A DNA stretch of 64,000 nt from NCBI GenBank assembly GCA_026414545.1, contig JAOAIU010000007.1, forward strand, positions 39,261-103,260. The letters are read 5' to 3'. The notes beneath the pieces are model-generated. The model was not told the origin of the DNA and searched no databases. It saw only the letters and a program-made list of their open reading frames with translations. Source of the DNA: Candidatus Saccharicenans sp. GTDB lineage: Bacteria; Acidobacteriota; Aminicenantia; Aminicenantales; Saccharicenantaceae. Below are positions 45,333 through 64,000 of this stretch, piece by piece. Both the position numbers and the translations under genes were made by a program. The stretch's first letter is position 1; each line of letters opens with the position of its first letter.

Positions 45333-47132
45333 TCAGGTAGGAGGATGCAGGCGCTTCTTGAACCAGACCCGGAGCCGCTCCATCTTCTCCCGCTGACCGG
45401 CCGGGGCCCGTCGCCGGCAGGTCGACATTTCCTCTGAATCCGGCCTGGCCCCCCAGCGGATTTCGGGGCAATCATTGGGGTTATATCCCATTTCAAAGGC
45501 TTCTTTTCTTCTTAAGATTTCTTCCAGGGTCAGAACCTGCAGCCGTCCGTCGGACCTGGGGTAGGAAATATACAGGCTGCTGGCCAGCTCTGCCGATAGC
45601 TTCTGCAGCCTGACCCGAATCTCTCCGGGCTTTTCTGAGTTTTTTGTGCGGTACATTTCCGGATGAGCAGCGACTTTATCCGGAAATTCCTCGATGGTAT
45701 CCATGGCAATCAACAACCGCAAATCGCGATTGGGGGTGGAAAAATCTTCCCAGGGCCCCGAAGCCAGAAAGACGCCTGCCCCGGAGGGCATAGGTATTAC
45801 CTGCCCAGGATGAGCCCTCATGTATTTTTCTCCATTCTCCACCGATTCCACCCTGACCAGGAGTTGCTCGTAAAGAGCCTGGAATAACTCCCTGAGGGCT
45901 GTCTCCGGGTCCAGGGGACGGGGGTTGATGAGTCTTTCCATACGGTCATAAAAAAGTTCAGGCTCCAGGTTTCGCTGTTGGAGAGAGTAATTTCCGTAAT
46001 CCGGGCTTTCCTGAATTTCCCGGTTTGACAGCAACCTCAGCCGACCCTGAGACCTGACAACCGGCCTGAAGGCCTTAAAACCTGGTTCTCCCACCACTTC
46101 GGAGGTGGCAAACAGAAAATTACCTTTCCAGAACCGTTTTAACCCCACCGTTCCGTCGGGCTGAGCATCCACCGCCAGCAGGACGCCTGGCCTGGAGTCG
46201 GTCTGCGGTTCCCAGCGGACGATAACCAGCGTGTGACCATAAGGGTCGGCATAAACCGTTCCCGGCCTGAGCGCTTCCCGCGAAAGGGGCAGAGGATAAT
46301 AATCCGAGTTCTCCTGGTCGAGAGCCATCCGGCCCGTTCCGGAGTGCACCGCGTTCATCACCATCCGCATCAGCCGTCCAAATTTTTCGGTCTCGGTCCC
46401 CTCGCCGGCTGGCAGCTCGTTGTGGAACCATCGACCGGGATTCGGTGGAGTAACTAGCGACCCGCGCGAACACTCGTGGAAACCAAAGGGAAGCCTCATC
46501 TTCCAGGAAAAGTAAGCCCTGAGAAAAAATGGATTATCAGCGCAATCCGGCCTGAGTTTCAATAGGCCATCCTCATTCTGCCCGAGATGGTCATGAAGGA
46601 AGTTATGACCAGGCCGGTTGAGGACCGAATTCAAGTCCGGCCAGGAGTCTTTTTCGCTGGCCTCATGGAACAGGGCATCCAGCCAGGCTGAAAACAGATT
46701 CTCCTGATTCCTGTCCCAATCCTCTTCTGACTTCCAGAAAAAGTTCGTTCTGACCAGGGCCGGCCGCTCGGCTTCCACCAGAACCACCCTTGATTCAAGG
46801 GTTTTTCCACCCTGAAGTATTTCAAGCCGGTACTGTCCCGGCTGGCGAATCTGTCCCTCCCACCAGAACCAGAATGGAGGGCCGCCTCCTTTCTTCCTGA
46901 GCTCCAGTTTCAGTTTTTCCCCTTCCTCCCTGCGAAATTTGACCTCTATCCGGCCTGCCACCGATTCCTCCTCTGTTACCACTAGCAAGCGGAACCCGGA
47001 ATCCGGACTCAGGCGAGCCGGAGAAATTAGAACACTTAGCTTCGGCTCGGCCACCCCGGCTCCGATGAGCTGGCCAGAAATTAACCACAGCAGACAGCCG
47101 GTCAGCCAGAAAAATTGGCCAATTCTTTTCAT
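45333..47132 (-). CDS. Secreted hypothetical protein (599 aa), no recognisable domain
   Basis: Signal peptide, long ORF with typical codon usage, divergent from sppA. No family-level motif could be assigned by inspection. Confidence 0.5.
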   Translation of the reverse strand: MKRIGQFFWLTGCLLWLISGQLIGAGVAEPKLSVLISPARLSPDSGFRLLVVTEEESVAGRIEVKFRREEGEKLKLELRKKGGGPPFWFWWEGQIRQPGQYRLEILQGGKTLESRVVLVEAERPALVRTNFFWKSEEDWDRNQENLFSAWLDALFHEASEKDSWPDLNSVLNRPGHNFLHDHLGQNEDGLLKLRPDCADNPFFLRAYFSWKMRLPFGFHECSRGSLVTPPNPGRWFHNELPAGEGTETEKFGRLMRMVMNAVHSGTGRMALDQENSDYYPLPLSREALRPGTVYADPYGHTLVIVRWEPQTDSRPGVLLAVDAQPDGTVGLKRFWKGNFLFATSEVVGEPGFKAFRPVVRSQGRLRLLSNREIQESPDYGNYSLQQRNLEPELFYDRMERLINPRPLDPETALRELFQALYEQLLVRVESVENGEKYMRAHPGQVIPMPSGAGVFLASGPWEDFSTPNRDLRLLIAMDTIEEFPDKVAAHPEMYRTKNSEKPGEIRVRLQKLSAELASSLYISYPRSDGRLQVLTLEEILRRKEAFEMGYNPNDCPEIRWGARPDSEEMSTCRRRAPAGQREKMERLRVWFKKRLHPPT

Positions 47133-51043: not shown

Positions 51044-53488
51044 ATGCCGCAAAGGTCAAGAATACTCGCGGGTGTTTCTCTGGTTTCAGCCCAGGTCCTG
51101 GCCCTGGAATTGATCCTGACCAGGTTCTTTTCCATTTCCCAGGGTTATCATTATGCCTTCCTGATAGTCAGCATCGCTTTCCTCGGATTCGGTGCCGGCT
51201 CTCTCTTTCTTTTTTCCGGGCGGCTAAAAGAATTCCTGAACGGGGAAGAAGCCCTCTCCTCCCTGGCCCTCGGCTCGAGCCTGACCATCATTCTGGGTTT
51301 CTTCCTGCTGAACCGGCTGCCCTTCAATCCACTGGAGCTTCTCTGGAACCAGGCCAGGCTGGGAATCATACCGCTGCATTACCTCCTCCTGAGCGCTCCA
51401 TTCCTGCTGGGAGGGCTATCCATCTCCCTGGCCCTGACCAGGTTATCTGGCCTTGTTCACATGGTATATTTTGCCGACCTGACGGGAGCCGCGGCCGGTC
51501 TGCTTCTCTCTTCATGGAGTTTCAGACTGTCCGGAGACCTCGGGGCTATCTGGCTTCTGGTTCTCCTGCCGCTGGCCGCTTCCTGGCTTTTTCTTCCCTG
51601 GGCCAGTACCAGACGAGCCCGGAAAATCGGGCACCTGGTCGCAAGCGTGATGGTTGTTTTGGCCGTGGGTTTGGGCGGAAGAGAACTCTGTTTTCAGATT
51701 TCCGACTATAAGCCCCTGCCTTTCTTCCTGAAACAAAAAAATGCGGCCCTGACCGCCACCCGGTGGGACGAAAAATTGCGACTTGACCTGTTCCAATCGC
51801 CGGCAGTTCGCTACGCCCCGGGTCTCAGCCTGAATTACAACGGCCCGATTCCGCAGCAGACCGGGCTTGCCCTGGATGCCGAAAGAATTTACGCCCTGAA
51901 CGATAGTGACGGGCCCAGCAACCAGCCCGCTTTCCTGGATTACCTGCCTTGCTGGCCGGCTTTCAATTTCCATCAGGGCGGTCGTTTCCTCCTGCTGGAT
52001 CCGGCCGGAGACCTGGAACTGCGTCTGAGCCTGAAAGCAAAGGCGTCCTCGATTACCGTCTTTGAAGAAAACCATCTCCTGAGGCAAGTACATAAAGACT
52101 GGCTCGACCCGTTGATTGGAACCGCGCATCCCACGTCTGCTGTCGAGTTCAGAACGGTTGAAGCCCGGGCCGGGTTGAGCTATGAAAAAAAGAGGGGCAC
52201 GGAATTCGACCTGATCTTCTATGCCCTGCCGGACCTTCCCGGTAGTTACAGCACCGGATTCTTCGGGCCCGGAGAGGATTACCTGATGACCGCTGAGGCG
52301 GTAGACCTGATCTACGAACTTCTCTCGCCGCGCGGCCTGGTCACCGCCCTTTACTATTTTCTACCGCCGCCCCGTCAGGAACTGCGTTTTCTGGCCCTCT
52401 GGGTGGAAGGGCTTGAAAGGCGCGGTCTCAGGCCTGAAAGGCATATTGTCTTTCTGAAAACAGTTGAAACTATAACCTTTTTTATTAAAAAGCAGGAATT
52501 TTCCGCTGCAGAAATAAGCCAACTGGAGGAATTTTCCCGCAACCGCTTGTTCGACCTGATCGTTCCGGGTCAAAAGGTCGGGGAGAAGACTCCACCTTTT
52601 ATTCAAGCAGAGATTCCGGCCTGGGAAGAGCTGGCCGGCTACCTTTTCGACCGGCAGAAACGACAGGCCATCTACCAGAATTATCTCTTTGACATCAGGC
52701 CGCCGGATGACGACCGGCCCTTTTTCCGTGATTTCATGAAATGGAATCGCTGGCCCGATATCAGAAAATTTTTTAATCGGAAAGCCTATCCCCTGTTCAT
52801 CGGCAAATACCTGCTGGTTTTCCTCCTGGCCCAATCGCTGACCATAGGGTTGCTGGTCATCATTCTTCCCCTTCTTCGCTCTGCTCGTCGAAGGCTGGCT
52901 GCTGTCCCCCGGAAAACCTTGCCTTTCTTTTACTTTGCCAGCCTCGGAGCGGGCTATTTGCTGGTGGAGATCACCCTTTTCCACAAGTTCATATTGCTCA
53001 TCGGGCACCCGACGTACTCGTTGAGTGCGGTCCTGTTCTTCCTGCTCAGTGCTTCTGGAGCCGGCAGCCTGAGCCTGACCGGCCTGCGCCGAAAAATCGG
53101 CCAGGTTGGGTTAATTAGCTGGCCCCTCGTTTGCCTTCTGACCATACTGCTGGAAATTGCCGCTCTGAACCTGGCTGGAAACTTTTTCCTTGCTCTCGGC
53201 CTGCCCTGGCGGCTTCTTCTCTGTTTCTTCCTGGTTTTCCCGCTCGGCTTCTGCTTGGGAATTCCCTTCCCGGCCGGTCTGAGCTACTTTCAATCCAGGT
53301 CGCCACTGATGATACCTTTTGCTTTTGCCGCCAACTCTTTTTTCAGCCTGCTGGCCTCAATCTGGGGCCTGGTCCAGGCCCAGCTCTGGGGATACCGGTC
53401 GGTATTTTTTGTTTCGGCCGGCTGCTACCTGTTAGCGTTTTTCTTTTTCTATCTCGCCTATCATCGGGACAAACCTGACGTCGAGTAG
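51044..53488 (+). CDS. Polytopic membrane protein with central spermidine-synthase-like (degenerate) domain and duplicated TM module
   Basis: The N-terminal module ([33 protein letters not shown]) is repeated near the C-terminus ([36 protein letters not shown]). The central [11 protein letters not shown]...[10 protein letters not shown]...[10 protein letters not shown] resembles the SpeE fold, with the GGGDGG SAM loop replaced. Confidence 0.55.
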
Positions 53489-60026: not shown

Positions 60027-60614
60027 ATGAAGAACATCATATCCGGTCTTAAAATAATATCGGTCCTGGTGCTGGTACTGGCCCTATTTTCCTGCAACCC
60101 GGTGGAGAGAAACACCAATTCCGCCAGCTTTTTGATCATCGAAAGTATCATCGGCAAGGATACCCAGGGCAATGATTCCACGGCGGTTTTCTCCGATGTC
60201 ATCACCAACGGAGTGGTCTATTCTGACTTTGTTAATCTGACCGTTCGCGCGGCCACTCTGGACCCCAACCCGATCATGGGTGTCTCTCAGTACAGCGATG
60301 TCATGATCACCAATTACATAGTGACCTACATCAGAAGCGACGGAGCTACCGGCGAGGGAACCGACGTGCCTTACCATTTTGAAGGAACTTTGTCCACCCT
60401 GGTTCCCGTAGGCTCCTCGGTCAGTATCCCTCTGTTGATCGTGCGGGATGTAGCCAAGACCCAACCGCCTCTCAGCGCTCTGGTCGGAAACCCGACGGGT
60501 ATGCTGGAATGTACCGCTCGTATCGAATTGATCGGCCACGACCTGAGAAACCGGCAGGTCCGGCAGACCGGCCAGATCACGGTTCGCTTTGCCGATTATA
60601 TTGACCCGCAGTAA
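60027..60614 (+). CDS. Putative lipoprotein (195 aa, beta-rich), downstream of pilQ
   Basis: Signal peptide with a lipobox-like LALFSC. 19 nt after pilQ. No recognisable family. Confidence 0.45.
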   Translation: MKNIISGLKIISVLVLVLALFSCNPVERNTNSASFLIIESIIGKDTQGNDSTAVFSDVITNGVVYSDFVNLTVRAATLDPNPIMGVSQYSDVMITNYIVTYIRSDGATGEGTDVPYHFEGTLSTLVPVGSSVSIPLLIVRDVAKTQPPLSALVGNPTGMLECTARIELIGHDLRNRQVRQTGQITVRFADYIDPQ

Positions 60615-60640: not shown

Positions 60641-62785
60641 TCACTGCCAGAGCCTGACCCAGAGATGGGCAGCAGGTTTCTCCATCCGGAATTTTCGCAG
60701 GTAAGAAAGTAGAGCTTCAACCTGGGTCTCGGATGATAACCTGACCATCAGCCTTACTTCCCGTTGCTCTTTGCGCCAGGTTTTCCGGGAAACTTTCGGC
60801 CCCAGAAGCTCCAGTCCGGGAAAATCCCTGTCCAGCTGTTCCAGGAGAAGACGGGAAGAACGCCCGGAACTTCGCAGTGAACGACCATCCAGCCCGACCT
60901 CAAGCAAATAGCTGAACGGAGGGTAATTCAGCAACCGCCTGTATTCTATTTCCCTCTGGTAGAAACCGGGAAAATCCCCGGACATGGCCTGAACTATTGC
61001 TTCCGGAGGAGGCCCGGCAGTAACCACCGCCACCCCGGAGCCTTCTTCGTTTCTCAGCAATTCCAGGGCGGAACTAGTCAGGGCTACCGTCTTTTCTGAC
61101 GCCCGGAAATCGGGCCGGTTAAGGCTGCTTTCCGGGTTGACCAGAACCAGACATGAGAAGTGATTCAACGGCAGCCGGCGCAGGGCATATTCGGTGCCTA
61201 TCACTAGGGGGCTCTTGCCCGAGCGTATTCTTTTCAGGCTCTTTTCCGCGGCTTTCTCTCCTACTCCCTCTTCCAGAACCTCAACTGGCTGATTGGGGAA
61301 GGCAGCCTGCAACTGCTCCTTCAAGTACTGGCTGCCGCGGACGCGCCCGGGCCTGAGTTTCAGGCGGCAGACTGGACATTCTTCCAGAGCCGGAGTTTCC
61401 CGCCCGCAATAACTGCAGCTAAGTTCTCCGCCCTTCGCCTTCAGGTTAAGGGCAATCCGGCACTGAGGACAGCGGGCGACGTAGCCGCAACTCGGGCAGA
61501 AAAGGTAACCGGCATAGCCTTTGCGGTTGACCAGGAAGAAAACATTGCCCCCGGCTCCCAGGCAGGAGGAGATTTCTTCCCGGAGCTCCTTTTTTAACAG
61601 CCTGGCTATATCTTTATCATAAAAATTGAGCCGCGGAACAAATTCCGGACGGCCGAGATCGAGAAGTGTTCCAGCCTGGAGGTGACGATGGTACTGACTG
61701 ATTCGGGGACAGCTTGAACTGAAAATCAGCAGGCTGTTTTCCAGTCTGGCCCTGATTCTGGCTGCTTCTCTGGTGTCAAAGGCCGGGCCATCAGCCTGGA
61801 AATGAAGGTCGTCGTGCTCCTCATCAACGACTATTAATGATATGGGCTGCACCGGCAGGAATAGGGCCGACCTGGTCCCGAATATGATCCTGGTCCGACC
61901 GGAAAGTACCTGGCTCCAGACATTTTCCCTGACTTTATCCGGAAGCTGGCTGTGCCAGCTCGCTGCCCGACTTCCAAACTCCTTTTCCAGAAGGCGCCAT
62001 TTTTCCAGCCTCTGGATATCCGGAACCAGAATCAAAACGAATCCATAACGCCCGGCCGAATAATCTGTGATTTTCCTCAGGAAATCCTGCCTTCTGTCCA
62101 GGCTTCCGGTGAGCAGGAAATTCCCGCCCTGGCCAGCCTCCAGCCTTGCCAGTAAGGGCTGGCCAACCCCCGGCAAGCCGTCAGGTCGGACCGGCAATAC
62201 CAGCTGACGGAAATTATCGGAAGCAGCCATCCGGAACGTTTTTTTTCTAGTTATTTTTTCCCTGATTTCCAGCAGGCCTTCCTGGCTCAGACTTCTCAGG
62301 TAGGAATTGATTTCCCTGAGCTTAAGCTTCCTCTTGATATATACCGGGCTTAGCTGGCGCTCAACCAGCAGGCTCAAGATCTGGCCCCGGCGGCCTTTCA
62401 TGCGGCCAGAGACCAGCTCCTGCAATCCTTTTTCGGTTATAAATAACCTTAGCCGGGGCTTCACTCTCGAGGCCGGAGGCTCGGCCATTTCCAGCAGTAG
62501 ACCGGGGGCAGTGAGGCTGCGCCCAGAAAGTTCCAGGGCAAATTTGAGGATTACCTCAGGTAACCGGAAAGAGTCCTGCGGGCAGGAGATTATTTCTTTA
62601 ACCTTGAATTCGGGTTCGCGGGTTAGCTCTTTGATCTCCAGCACATAGCCGCCCAGTTTCCTTGTGCCCAGAGGAGCGATGACCCTGGACCCGGGTTGCA
62701 CCTTTCCGGTCAGCTCAGGTGGCAGACGATAAAGGAAGGTCTGAAAGACCGGTAGCGGAAAAAGAACCTGGCAGTAGCTGGACAT
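60641..62785 (-). CDS. priA: Primosomal protein N' (PriA) homologue with degenerate ATPase motifs
   Basis: Collinear with PriA. It retains GTRSALF, the DEEHD Walker B and the 8-Cys double zinc finger CPSCGYVARCPQC...CSYCG...CPVC. Walker A reads LLTGSLDRRQD instead of GxTGSGKTE. Motif III reads SSSCP instead of GSATP. No GRxGR is present in motif VI. Confidence 0.8.
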   Translation of the reverse strand: MSSYCQVLFPLPVFQTFLYRLPPELTGKVQPGSRVIAPLGTRKLGGYVLEIKELTREPEFKVKEIISCPQDSFRLPEVILKFALELSGRSLTAPGLLLEMAEPPASRVKPRLRLFITEKGLQELVSGRMKGRRGQILSLLVERQLSPVYIKRKLKLREINSYLRSLSQEGLLEIREKITRKKTFRMAASDNFRQLVLPVRPDGLPGVGQPLLARLEAGQGGNFLLTGSLDRRQDFLRKITDYSAGRYGFVLILVPDIQRLEKWRLLEKEFGSRAASWHSQLPDKVRENVWSQVLSGRTRIIFGTRSALFLPVQPISLIVVDEEHDDLHFQADGPAFDTREAARIRARLENSLLIFSSSCPRISQYHRHLQAGTLLDLGRPEFVPRLNFYDKDIARLLKKELREEISSCLGAGGNVFFLVNRKGYAGYLFCPSCGYVARCPQCRIALNLKAKGGELSCSYCGRETPALEECPVCRLKLRPGRVRGSQYLKEQLQAAFPNQPVEVLEEGVGEKAAEKSLKRIRSGKSPLVIGTEYALRRLPLNHFSCLVLVNPESSLNRPDFRASEKTVALTSSALELLRNEEGSGVAVVTAGPPPEAIVQAMSGDFPGFYQREIEYRRLLNYPPFSYLLEVGLDGRSLRSSGRSSRLLLEQLDRDFPGLELLGPKVSRKTWRKEQREVRLMVRLSSETQVEALLSYLRKFRMEKPAAHLWVRLWQ

Positions 62786-63531
62786 CAGGATTTAAGCAGC
62801 TCAAGTACTTTTTTCATGTCTTCCCAGACCATTTTCTTGATTTCTTTATTCCCTTCATTCCGGACCAGGTAAGAAGGATGAAAAGTTGGCATAACCGGGA
62901 TTCCCTGAAACTCGCCAAAGTTCCCGCGCAGTTCGGACATGCTCTTCGGGCTTTGAAGAAGAAAGTCGGTGGCTACCTTTCCCAGGGCTACGATGACCTT
63001 AGGTCTAATCAGGTCTATCTGCCGAAGAAGGTAGGGAGAGCAGGCCTTGACCTCGTCGGGCCGGGGCGTGCGGTTCTCCGGCGGACGGCACTTGATGACA
63101 TTGGCAATGTAGACCTCTTCCCGGCTGAAACCCATGGCCTGAATAATCCGGGTCAGTAGCTGTCCGGCCCGGCCGACGAAAGGACGGCCTTGCAAGTCTT
63201 CGTCCCGCCCCGGAGCTTCGCCCACAAACATCAACCTGGCCTGCCGGTTCCCCTCGCCGGGTACAGCCTGGGTCCTCCCCTTAAAAAGGGGGCAGGCCTG
63301 GCAGCCCATGATTTTGCGAATCAGCCGTTCCCATTCTTCCCCGTCAGGAGTAATCTCTCCGCCAGCTCCAGAAAAGCCACTGGCTATCAGCAACTGATTC
63401 TCGGCCGTGGCGGCTCCATCTTTCCCGCTTGTCTTCCGCGGACTGACCAGAAACTCAACACCCAGGTCGCGGTAAAACTCCAGCCGGGTCCGCAATTCGT
63501 GCTTCAAGTCAGCTCTTTCCTTTTCGTTCAT
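62785..63531 (-). CDS. udg: Uracil-DNA glycosylase, family 4 (Fe-S type) with N-terminal extension
   Basis: GCQACPLFKGRTQAVPGEG, LMFVGEAPGRDED, GRPFVGRAG, HPS motifs. Confidence 0.85.
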   Translation of the reverse strand: MNEKERADLKHELRTRLEFYRDLGVEFLVSPRKTSGKDGAATAENQLLIASGFSGAGGEITPDGEEWERLIRKIMGCQACPLFKGRTQAVPGEGNRQARLMFVGEAPGRDEDLQGRPFVGRAGQLLTRIIQAMGFSREEVYIANVIKCRPPENRTPRPDEVKACSPYLLRQIDLIRPKVIVALGKVATDFLLQSPKSMSELRGNFGEFQGIPVMPTFHPSYLVRNEGNKEIKKMVWEDMKKVLELLKS

Positions 63532-64000
63532 TTAAGAGAACCTCGACCTCCGTCATTATTTCCTGGCTTATTTTTCTCTTGCTGGCCCGGGGAATCTTCC
63601 TGTAGCGGCCGTCCGGCCAGAACAGGGTAACCTCATTCTCGTCGCTTCCGAACCCTACCTCGGGCCTGGAGACATCGTTGCTGACCATCAGGTCGACCTT
63701 TTTCCTATTCATTTTCTCCAGGGCTCTATCTTCCAGCCGGCTGGTTTCGGCGGCAAACCCCACCAGCAACTGCCGTTCCTTCTGTCGCCCCAGCTCCTCC
63801 AGGATATCGGGGGCGGGTTCGATTTCTAGGGCTTTACCAATTTCAGCTTTCCTGGCTTTATCGGGCAGGGTCCGCTTAAATCGGAAATCAGCTACGGCCG
63901 CGGCCATCAGAACGACATCAGCCCGGGGATAATGCTTGAGAACAGCCTCCCTCATTTCTTCGGCAGTGTTCACCCTTTCCAGGTAGACACCAGACGGTGC
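63509..64000 (-). CDS. coaBC: Bifunctional phosphopantothenoylcysteine decarboxylase/phosphopantothenate-cysteine ligase, C-terminal (CoaB) part; N-terminus beyond window
   Basis: VLMAAAVADFR...LVGFAAET...DLMVSNDVS...GFGSDENEVTLF is the CoaB domain. The frame continues past position 64000. Confidence 0.8.
   Translation of the reverse strand, partial: APSGVYLERVNTAEEMREAVLKHYPRADVVLMAAAVADFRFKRTLPDKARKAEIGKALEIEPAPDILEELGRQKERQLLVGFAAETSRLEDRALEKMNRKKVDLMVSNDVSRPEVGFGSDENEVTLFWPDGRYRKIPRASKRKISQEIMTEVEVLLNERKGKS

Follow-up and report, generated by a model that had tools for sequence, protein, structure and literature searches.

A class-wide PriA orthologue with degenerate helicase motifs in Candidatus Saccharicenans and other Aminicenantes, putatively acting in replication restart without unwinding

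Introduction

PriA pseudohelicases are already an established concept, as is the genetic rationale provided by priA300, and no new kind of system is described here. In E. coli, the priA300 product (PriA K230R) lacks ATPase activity, supports restart, and allows near-wild-type growth (PMC5778457); the change from Lys to Arg at Walker A abolishes the ATPase, helicase, and translocase activities and leaves primosome assembly in place. A helicase-dead priA allele of E. coli depends on PriB. A second, weak nucleotide site has also been proposed for E. coli PriA (PMC5778457). In the Deinococcus-Thermus group, PriA is reported to match motif I and Walker B poorly, a lineage-wide change, and is known as a pseudohelicase (Lopper et al. 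2015, PMC4504706): the D. radiodurans protein, which carries the K-to-R change, is inactive both as an ATPase and as a helicase, yet it retains binding to forks and to DnaB (PMC4504706).

The gene examined here lies in a 64-kb stretch of DNA, the whole of which is referred to as the window hereafter, from a metagenome-assembled genome (MAG) of Ca. Saccharicenans. The original prediction, made from the nucleotide sequence, was that this gene encodes a PriA homologue that keeps its structural motifs and has lost several motifs for ATP binding and hydrolysis. We examined this protein in terms of its motifs, predicted fold, family, and gene neighbourhood.

Results

Gene and domain layout

The gene and the domains that frame its former motor are located as follows.

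60641..62785, minus strand: priA orthologue with degenerate helicase motifs (putative pseudohelicase PriA), 714 aa (ORF, TIGR00595, PDB match, AF2/Foldseek, dN/dS)
62471..62785, minus strand: 3′-end-binding domain (3′BD), residues 1–105, with the FxY element F17 and Y19 (PF17764)
61367..61498, minus strand: Cys-rich region (CRR), residues 430–473, with four CxxC pairs (alignment; PF18319 below its cut-off)

The reading frame of 714 codons runs without interruption. Its product narrowly exceeded the cut-off of the TIGR00595 equivalog (247.3 bits vs. 230.35), and the match, which covers model positions 26–488, begins downstream of the Walker A segment. Among the Pfam models for the PriA domains, only PF17764 scored above its cut-off (59.1 bits vs. 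22.7; residues 6–102). PF18319 (19.5 bits vs. 26) and PF18074 (13.6 vs. 26.9) fell below theirs; nevertheless, the predicted fold spans both of these domains. In the 714-aa protein, no PF00270 match was obtained at E ≤ 1, PF00271 remained below its cut-off (21.3 bits vs. 23.5; residues 243–306), and all NCBIfam PRK05580.x subfamilies were also below theirs. The F17 and Y19 residues of the 3′BD are invariant in the family described below and are also kept in canonical PriAs. The CRR, with its four pairs (C430/433, C439/442, C457/460, and C470/473) and two Zn sites, is an insert in lobe 2, as is characteristic of PriA, and all eight Cys residues are invariant in the family.

The AF2 model of the protein was confident over the full length (pLDDT 82.8, pTM 0.79). 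When it was searched with Foldseek, the full-length PriA structures 4NL4, 6DGD, and 8FAK were found on top (E 1e-40 to 1e-38, TM 0.68–0.76), and each of the best nine matches was a PriA chain (E 1e-40 to 2e-26, TM 0.6–0.77). The next matches were Mfd (E 5e-12 to about 1e-11), and they covered the RecA-like lobes only. The identity as Mfd was rejected on this ground, and that as RecG was rejected because the TIGR00643 recG score (13.6 bits) was far under the cut-off of 659. Judging from the model, the full architecture of PriA is kept, being composed of the 3′BD, the winged helix (WH), two RecA-like lobes, the CRR, and the C-terminal domain (CTD).

Helicase motifs

The motifs were located by three independent alignments: a HMMER alignment to K. 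pneumoniae PriA (4NL4; E 1.4e-42), a MAFFT L-INS-i alignment of 46 sequences, and a MAFFT alignment of about 125 sequences.

62078..62122, minus strand: degenerate motif I, residues 222–236, FLLTGSLDRRQDFLR, without GK[ST]
61859..61879, minus strand: motif Ib, GTRSALF, residues 303–309, kept
61811..61834, minus strand: motif II (Walker B), IVVDEEHD, residues 318–325, kept
61706..61726, minus strand: degenerate motif III, residues 354–360, IFSSSCP replacing LGSATP
61511..61531, minus strand: motif IV, VNRKGYA, residues 419–425, kept
61166..61198, minus strand: degenerate motif V, residues 530–540, GTEYALRRLPL replacing GTQMxAKGxDF
61040..61075, minus strand: degenerate motif VI, residues 571–582, SSALELLRNEEG, replacing QVxGRAGRG, with both Arg residues gone

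At the aligned positions of this protein, none of the SF2 motifs I (GxxxxGK[ST]), III (SAT), V, and VI (QxxGRxGR) was found. In motif I, ITGSGKTEVYL of canonical PriA aligns with LTG-SLDRRQDFL: the P-loop is shorter by one residue, and Arg232 occupies the column of the Walker A Lys. In the AF2 model, a strand (residues 221–226) is followed by a helix that starts from residue 229 at the site of the former P-loop. In motif VI, QVxGRAGRG aligns with ALELLRNEE. The three alignments agree with one another, by which an alignment artefact was ruled out as the source of these losses. The losses of the Walker A Lys, motif III, and the arginine finger of motif VI, all of which had been claimed in the original prediction, were thus borne out by careful alignment. 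Two further changes had been missed there, namely the loss of motif V and the alteration of motif Ia from PEIxLT to PDIQRLEK.

We then counted the residues in the corresponding columns of 81 family clusters and 37 canonical PriAs. The Lys, the Thr/Ser, and either Arg of motif VI were present in all 37 canonical PriAs and in none of the 81 family clusters. The Walker A Lys column is occupied by Arg in 77 of the 81 clusters, as against Lys in 37 of 37. One family member, P0290, contains a match to the GxxxxGK[ST] pattern, which falls outside the position of motif I and was not accepted. Motif II drifts across the family while staying acidic (D/E, E/D, E, and then Q, S, H, or A; for example, DEEQ, DDEx, and EDEx), and its third acidic residue is present in 80 of the 81 clusters. 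Among the close family members, D321 never varies, and E322 and R232 hardly do. The earlier claim that the structural motifs are intact therefore holds for GTRSALF, IVVDEEHD, and the four CxxC pairs of this protein; the His of DEEH, however, is variable across the family.

Family spread and selection

The same motif losses were found in about 110 clusters (90% identity), which comprise 33 clusters at 43–100% identity and about 75 more that belong to a sister group. The named clusters come from Ca. Saccharicenans, Aminicenantes, and Aminicenantales, and all named members belong to Aminicenantes or Acidobacteriota. Every one of the best 35 representatives among 1.84 billion was degenerate, and no motif-intact protein was found among the named Aminicenantes PriA matches in the large protein searches. 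Similarly, among the matches listed from the genome collection, all Aminicenantes-labelled loci carry a degenerate PriA. In the neighbour-joining analysis, the family and the canonical PriAs were split in 100 of 100 bootstraps, a grouping that long-branch attraction could inflate as these are fast-evolving sequences. The nearest canonical relatives of the family are the PriAs of other Acidobacteriota, as expected under vertical descent.

The dN/dS of priA was 0.12–0.18 overall, similar to those of the neighbouring housekeeping genes. When the gene was divided into parts, the value was 0.05–0.07 in the 3′BD (omega 0.07) and the CTD, which are the two most constrained parts, and 0.15–0.17 in the former motor lobes, which evolve about twice as fast; these omega values are approximate, since dS to the nearest relatives is about 1 and near saturation. 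The occurrence of the same substitutions in the orthologues throughout the Aminicenantes family clusters, together with the purifying selection, agrees with the earlier view that the losses are not a simple sequencing error. The loss of the motor residues is well supported, on comparison of the family sequences, as running through the whole class under maintained purifying selection.

Degenerate PriAs were also encountered outside the family (P0316, P0328, P0356, P0364, P0367, and P0380).

Genomic neighbourhood

Two genes upstream of priA fall within the window.

62785..63531, minus strand: uracil-DNA glycosylase superfamily gene (udg; PF03167, E 2e-44)
63509..64000, minus strand: coaBC, 3′ part (PF04127 DFP, E 2e-35); the listed ORF stops at 63973, and the gene presumably runs past the end of the window

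All three genes are on the minus strand. The stop codon of udg shares 1 nt with the start codon of priA (TGATG), and udg and coaBC overlap by 23 nt, as the co-orientation and overlaps noted in the original prediction had indicated. In related loci, a full-length coaBC is located upstream of udg. The block yicC-gmk-coaBC-udg-priA was found here and in all of the Aminicenantes loci among the matches listed. In six Firmicutes loci, canonical priA stands within the arrangement (yicC)-gmk-coaBC-priA; in one other Acidobacteriota locus (L058), udg lies next to a motif-intact PriA gene. Since the degenerate gene occupies the same site as canonical priA, after gmk-coaBC and after udg, it is regarded as the positional orthologue and not as an extra paralogue. 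No second PriA homologue was found within the 64-kb window.

Discussion

Comparison with known PriAs

The present protein resembles canonical PriA of E. coli and K. pneumoniae (4NL4, 6DGD, and 8FAK) in its six-domain architecture and fold, in the FxY element of the 3′BD, in motifs Ib, II, and IV, in the two-zinc CRR, and in its position beside coaBC. It differs from them in that motifs I, III, V, and VI are gone and the identity is only about 20%.

A close parallel in character is the PriA of Deinococcus-Thermus, with which it shares the replacement of the Walker A Lys by Arg, the retention of the DNA-binding domains, the lineage-wide extent of the change, and the proposed role in restart without unwinding. 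Unlike the Deinococcus-Thermus proteins with their poor Walker B, however, it has an intact DEEH, and the phylum is also different: it is Acidobacteriota (Aminicenantes), other members of which have canonical PriA. The erasure of motifs III, V, and VI and the shortening of the P-loop, as read from the sequence, go beyond what was described for Deinococcus-Thermus. From the taxonomy and synteny, we infer that the loss arose independently of that in Deinococcus-Thermus. The Lys-to-Arg replacement is likewise that of E. coli priA300; priA300 and K230A/D, however, are engineered single changes in an otherwise intact motor, whereas five motifs are degenerate here and are fixed throughout the class.

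By sequence, Actinomycetota are another PriA lineage without the helicase motifs, as represented by two members, P0268 (Solwaraspora; 983.7 bits vs. the NF011452 cut-off of 980) and P0271, which also lack motifs I, II, and VI. UniProt attaches to PriAs of this type (PRK14873) the caution that helicase domains are not detectable. The present protein is placed in a different clade and keeps the Walker B that the actinobacterial proteins have lost, and its score against the best of the Actinomycetota models (NF011453, 158.5 bits) is far from the cut-off of 812.

Interpretation of the motor loss

With the P-loop and GK[ST] as well as motifs III, V, and VI lost, the sequence indicates that canonical ATP binding and hydrolysis, translocation, and unwinding are almost certainly impossible for this protein. 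We consider it probable that this is the genome's own orthologous priA, whose motor has been inactivated class-wide, and that the product serves as a restart platform without unwinding. The alignments, the fold, the selection on the family, and the precedents all support the earlier suggestion of an ATPase-dead PriA acting as a scaffold or restart loader. The lack of ATPase activity, the binding to forks, and the loader role are each deduced from the sequence, and the most likely task of such a protein would be to recognise stalled forks and to recruit the replisome.

Other explanations have to be weighed against this one. That the gene is an artefact of sequencing or assembly or a decaying pseudogene might be suspected from its origin in a MAG and from a related low-coverage MAG locus (L003) whose reading frame is broken. 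This is effectively refuted by the unbroken frame of 714 codons, by the same length and substitutions recurring in over 100 independent clusters, which derive from many samples, by the dN/dS of 0.12–0.18, and by the confident full-length model. It was also suggested earlier that the gene might be a pseudo-helicase paralogue; it would then have a derived or minor role, with a canonical priA elsewhere in the genome performing restart. The window covers just 64 kb of a contig that is about 164 kb long, and the roughly twofold faster evolution of the former motor lobes would suit such a gene. We regard this explanation as unlikely, however, because the gene stands at the exact canonical priA site after gmk-coaBC and udg, because no motif-intact PriA appears among the named Aminicenantes matches and all Aminicenantes-labelled loci among the matches listed are degenerate, and because the closest canonical PriAs, from other Acidobacteriota, fit vertical descent.

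The remaining explanations accept orthology and concern the function. The altered pocket, with Arg232 and the Walker B Asp/Glu, might bind ATP or another ligand, so that the protein would be a nucleotide-regulated switch or a slow motor. The conservation of Arg in the Lys column and of the third acidic residue of motif II, the invariance or near-invariance of D321, E322, and R232 in the close family, and the second weak nucleotide site discussed for E. coli PriA are consistent with such a pocket. Nevertheless, it seems improbable: the shortened P-loop has neither the glycine nor the Ser/Thr by which phosphates and Mg2+ are held and is modelled as the start of a helix, the protein has lost both arginine fingers as well as motifs III and V, through which hydrolysis is coupled to movement, and K to R alone abolishes the ATPase of E. 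coli PriA. Alternatively, the protein could have been repurposed outside restart, for example as a sensor of DNA structure that works in repair with the translationally coupled uracil-DNA glycosylase, as might be imagined from the overlap of the udg stop with the priA start and the class-wide conservation of the pair. We find this very hard to accept, since udg adjoins a motif-intact PriA gene in L058, which means that the coupling extends beyond the degenerate form, and constraint is strongest in the fork-recognition domains, as the ancestral role predicts.

Under the favoured explanation, a restart platform without a motor, the SF2 motor would have been inactivated in the ancestor of the class Aminicenantia, in which the P-loop lost one residue and GK[ST], and motifs III and V and both arginine fingers of motif VI were replaced. 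Selection would have kept the 3′BD, the winged helix, the two-zinc CRR, and the CTD, and the two RecA-like lobes may persist as a rigid DNA-binding body, with motifs Ib and IV retained. An abandoned fork would be recognised by two features, its branch point and the 3′ end of the nascent leading strand. PriA would then act as a static platform for bringing in the replicative helicase, whether by direct contact, as has been reported for PriA and DnaB of D. radiodurans, or via other partners; any removal of strands that is needed would be done by other helicases.

Implications

It is well supported that Aminicenantes are a second natural lineage with a pseudohelicase PriA after Deinococcus. The Walker A Lys is changed to Arg in Aminicenantia, as reported for Deinococcus-Thermus, and the 3′BD and the CRR are kept in the motor-degenerate lineages examined. 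We tentatively raise the possibility that the motor was shed independently in Deinococcus-Thermus, Actinomycetota, Aminicenantia, and at least two more lineages among the nearest 150 representatives, and that what has been selected universally in PriA is the ability to recognise forks and to recruit the helicase, with unwinding as an accessory.

The present result adds an entire, environmentally widespread class in which an orthologous PriA minus five motor motifs is under strong purifying selection, and it provides a deep natural alignment of the surfaces that matter without a motor, namely the 3′BD, the CTD, the CRR, and motifs Ib and IV. The automated name "replication restart helicase PriA" on the proteins of Aminicenantes MAGs overstates what the sequences support. 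If the possibility of repeated motor loss raised above is true, Aminicenantia would be a natural, class-wide "priA300", which would imply a helicase-independent route of restart, possibly with direct recruitment of DnaB. The present result strengthens the view that the core job of PriA is the recognition of forks and the recruitment of the replisome, not unwinding.

Motif losses and predicted fold of the window PriA

An unbroken ORF on the minus strand of the window (60641..62785) encodes a PriA of 714 aa. PF17764 (the PriA 3′-end-binding domain, 3′BD; 59 bits) is the sole Pfam family above the cut-off in this protein: Helicase_C, the PriA zinc ribbon and PriA_C are sub-threshold, and no Pfam match was obtained for DEAD/ResIII. 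Among the NCBIfam models, the protein lies narrowly above the cut-off of the generic priA equivalog TIGR00595 (247 bits vs. 230), with a match that begins at model position 26, directly past the Walker A segment, and far below all of the specific subfamily cut-offs (PRK05580.x and PRK14873.x). A phmmer search of the PDB sequences returned PriA only (K. pneumoniae 4NL4/6DGD and E. coli 8FAK/6DCR; E ~1e-42). In this alignment, the canonical ITGSGKTEVYL of motif I corresponds to LTG-SLDRRQDFL, LGSATP of motif III to FSSSCP, and the GRAGRAGK segment of motif VI to LELLRNEEG; the correspondences were identical in MAFFT alignments with canonical PriAs of several phyla. The losses of GK[ST], SAT and the motif VI arginine described in the original prediction were thus confirmed, and motif Ib (GTRSALF), motif II (DEEH) and the four CxxC pairs, which it had regarded as intact, are all present, together with motif IV (NRKGYA). 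Two changes that it had overlooked were found by MAFFT: motif V is gone (GTQMxAKGxD to GTEYALRRLP), and motif Ia is changed.

For the AlphaFold2 model built from the family alignment (pLDDT 82.8, pTM 0.79), the top Foldseek matches in the PDB were PriA chains only, over the full length (E 1e-40 to 2e-26; TM 0.6-0.77), while Mfd and other SF2 proteins matched the RecA-like lobes only (E 1e-11 or weaker). In the model, strand 221-226 and a helix beginning at residue 229 are nearly contiguous, so that the eight-residue phosphate-binding loop is predicted to be cut to about two residues.

Breadth of the family and lineage of the loss

Among 5.8 billion clustered proteins, an NCBI protein identical to the window PriA (from a Candidatus Saccharicenans MAG) and 32 more clusters with 43-79% identity to it were found. 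Nearly all of the latter are 711-716 aa long (one is partial, 606 aa), Pfam detects the 3′BD alone in them, with the zinc ribbon added in some, and the motif losses are common to all (MAFFT). About 75 further clusters, with roughly 30% identity to the window PriA, form a sister group that is labelled, where named, Aminicenantes, Aminicenantales or Acidobacteriota (the labels of loci and clusters are those given by the MAG submitters). Its motifs Ia, III and IV are nearer canonical than those of the close family; GK[ST], the Lys-Gly of motif V and the two arginines of motif VI are missing there too. The Walker A lysine, the next Thr/Ser and either motif VI arginine occur in none of 81 family clusters vs. 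37 of 37 canonical PriAs, and the lysine column holds arginine in 77 of the 81.

When 1.84 billion representatives were searched exhaustively with a profile, the best 35 (≥511 bits, 648-726 aa) were all degenerate, and motif-intact PriAs begin at 504 bits, below a clean break. The losses shared by both groups and the low dN/dS (below) effectively rule out an artefact or pseudogene. Neighbour-joining, in which long-branch effects are possible, set the family apart from the canonical PriAs in 100 of 100 bootstraps, with other Acidobacteriota as the nearest canonical sequences. Since the motifs are fully canonical in other Acidobacteriota PriAs (Terriglobales, Terracidiphilus, subdivision 13 and locus L058), the sequence comparison places the motor loss at the Aminicenantes stem, with more erosion later in the Saccharicenans branch.

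The sole disrupted copy seen was in a 3.9x-coverage Aminicenantes MAG (L003:4943-7166), where the frame breaks after about 90 codons, probably by an assembly error. Three loci labelled 'uncultured Eubacteriales' (L004, L009, L011) nevertheless encode a degenerate sister-group PriA and carry the Aminicenantes-type yicC-gmk-coaBC-udg-priA block; the label is probably wrong.

Genomic neighbourhood and selection

The following ORFs of the window are referred to here, besides priA:

45333..47132, minus strand: large ORF, 599 aa, no Pfam match at E≤1e-5
51044..53488, plus strand: large ORF, 814 aa, no Pfam match at E≤1e-5
60027..60614, plus strand: lipoprotein-like ORF, 195 aa, signal peptide with the lipobox LFSC at its end
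62785..63531, minus strand: UDG-superfamily protein (udg), 248 aa

As originally predicted, priA is co-oriented and overlapping with udg and coaBC: it closes the coaBC-udg-priA unit on the minus strand, in which the stop codon of udg runs into the priA start codon (TGATG) and a 23-nt overlap joins udg to coaBC. The unit is convergent with the end of the pilMNOPQ-lipoprotein operon. The order yicC-gmk-coaBC-udg-priA was found in every Aminicenantes locus of both groups among the matches listed, (yicC)-gmk-coaBC-priA in at least six Firmicutes loci with a motif-intact PriA, and udg directly upstream of priA in the canonical Acidobacteriota locus L058. Because the block is shared with these canonical loci, the degenerate gene is a positional orthologue in the ancestral priA slot. 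This position, and the absence of a second PriA homologue from the 64-kb window, argue against the gene being an extra paralogue of a canonical priA elsewhere in the genome, the probability of which is low but non-zero.

The dN/dS of priA, calculated against two relatives with DNA (L081 and L083, the latter from GCA_003426165.1), was 0.12-0.18, with 0.09-0.10 for udg and 0.14 for coaBC in the same genome pairs; these values are approximate, as dS was ~1 in comparisons with the window. By domain (values likewise approximate), the constraint was strongest in the C-terminal domain (CTD; 0.055) and the 3′BD (0.07), and looser, still clearly present, in the ex-motor lobes (0.15-0.17) and the Cys-rich region (CRR; 0.13-0.20). 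The priA genes of L081:3001-5145 and L083:9971-12115 form a mosaic (dS is 0 for codons 1-200 and reaches 0.3-0.85 in the 3′ half), which suggests strain recombination or a chimeric assembly.

The neighbours have features of their own. In the UDG-superfamily protein, a ~90-residue N-terminal extension precedes the Pfam UDG domain (residues 91-240), as also in relatives (L001, domain from residue 86; L008, from residue 68). The lipoprotein-like ORF, which has no Pfam family, directly follows the pilQ secretin gene and adjoins the secretin gene in all Aminicenantes loci among the matches listed. Its conservation is unusually high (93-94% aa identity against 79% for PriA; dN/dS ~0.04), and a role as a pilotin-like or otherwise secretin-associated component is possible. 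Like the 814- and 599-aa ORFs, an 810-aa gene called at the corresponding place in L083 has no Pfam match.

Proposed function and comparison with other degenerate PriAs

E. coli PriA loses its ATPase, helicase and translocase activities in the K230R allele (priA300), yet the protein still assembles primosomes and the cells are almost like the wild type; helicase activity is required only for the PriA-PriC route, phage Mu and some stress conditions (PMC5778457; PMC4504706). The D. radiodurans PriA, with the same K to R change, is without ATPase or unwinding and still binds ssDNA, forks and DnaB (PMC4504706). In the Aminicenantes family, the fork-recognising 3′BD, including the FxY element, and CTD are best conserved, as are the CRR, which binds zinc, and motifs Ib and IV, which contact nucleic acid. 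The motif loss, the constrained fork-recognition domains and these precedents favour the reading, already offered in the original prediction, of an ATPase-dead scaffold or restart loader: most likely, the protein would work as a static platform for fork recognition and recruitment, without motor activity. Speculatively, the empty site may be stabilised by pairing of the conserved arginine with the Walker B acids that remain.

Whereas the Deinococcus PriA is an experimentally known pseudohelicase, the Aminicenantes PriA is assigned to the same kind from its sequence. It belongs to another lineage, Walker B is intact in the window protein, and the erosion is wider, covering motifs III, V and VI and a shortened P-loop.

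Other degenerate PriAs were also seen. The Actinomycetota PriAs P0268 and P0271 (e.g., Solwaraspora) lack motifs I, II and VI, P0268 scoring above the curated NCBIfam cut-off NF011452 (PRK14873.1-2); motif-less PriA thus appears to occur in this phylum too. Six metagenomic representatives outside the Aminicenantes family (P0316, P0328, P0356, P0364, P0367 and P0380) have no intact Walker A; motif VI, too, is missing from most of them. In the neighbour-joining tree, the first five are nested among canonical PriAs and P0380 is sister to the Aminicenantes family, which suggests additional independent motor losses. From these Actinomycetota and metagenomic cases, PriA motor loss seems to be recurrent.

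The main review names Deinococcus as the sole exception (PMC5778457), and our literature search found no paper linking PriA and Aminicenantes in the pseudohelicase sense. The finding will be no great surprise to specialists familiar with the priA300 and Deinococcus work; the Aminicenantes family corrects the 'only Deinococcus' picture of PriA pseudohelicases and offers a class-wide natural experiment.
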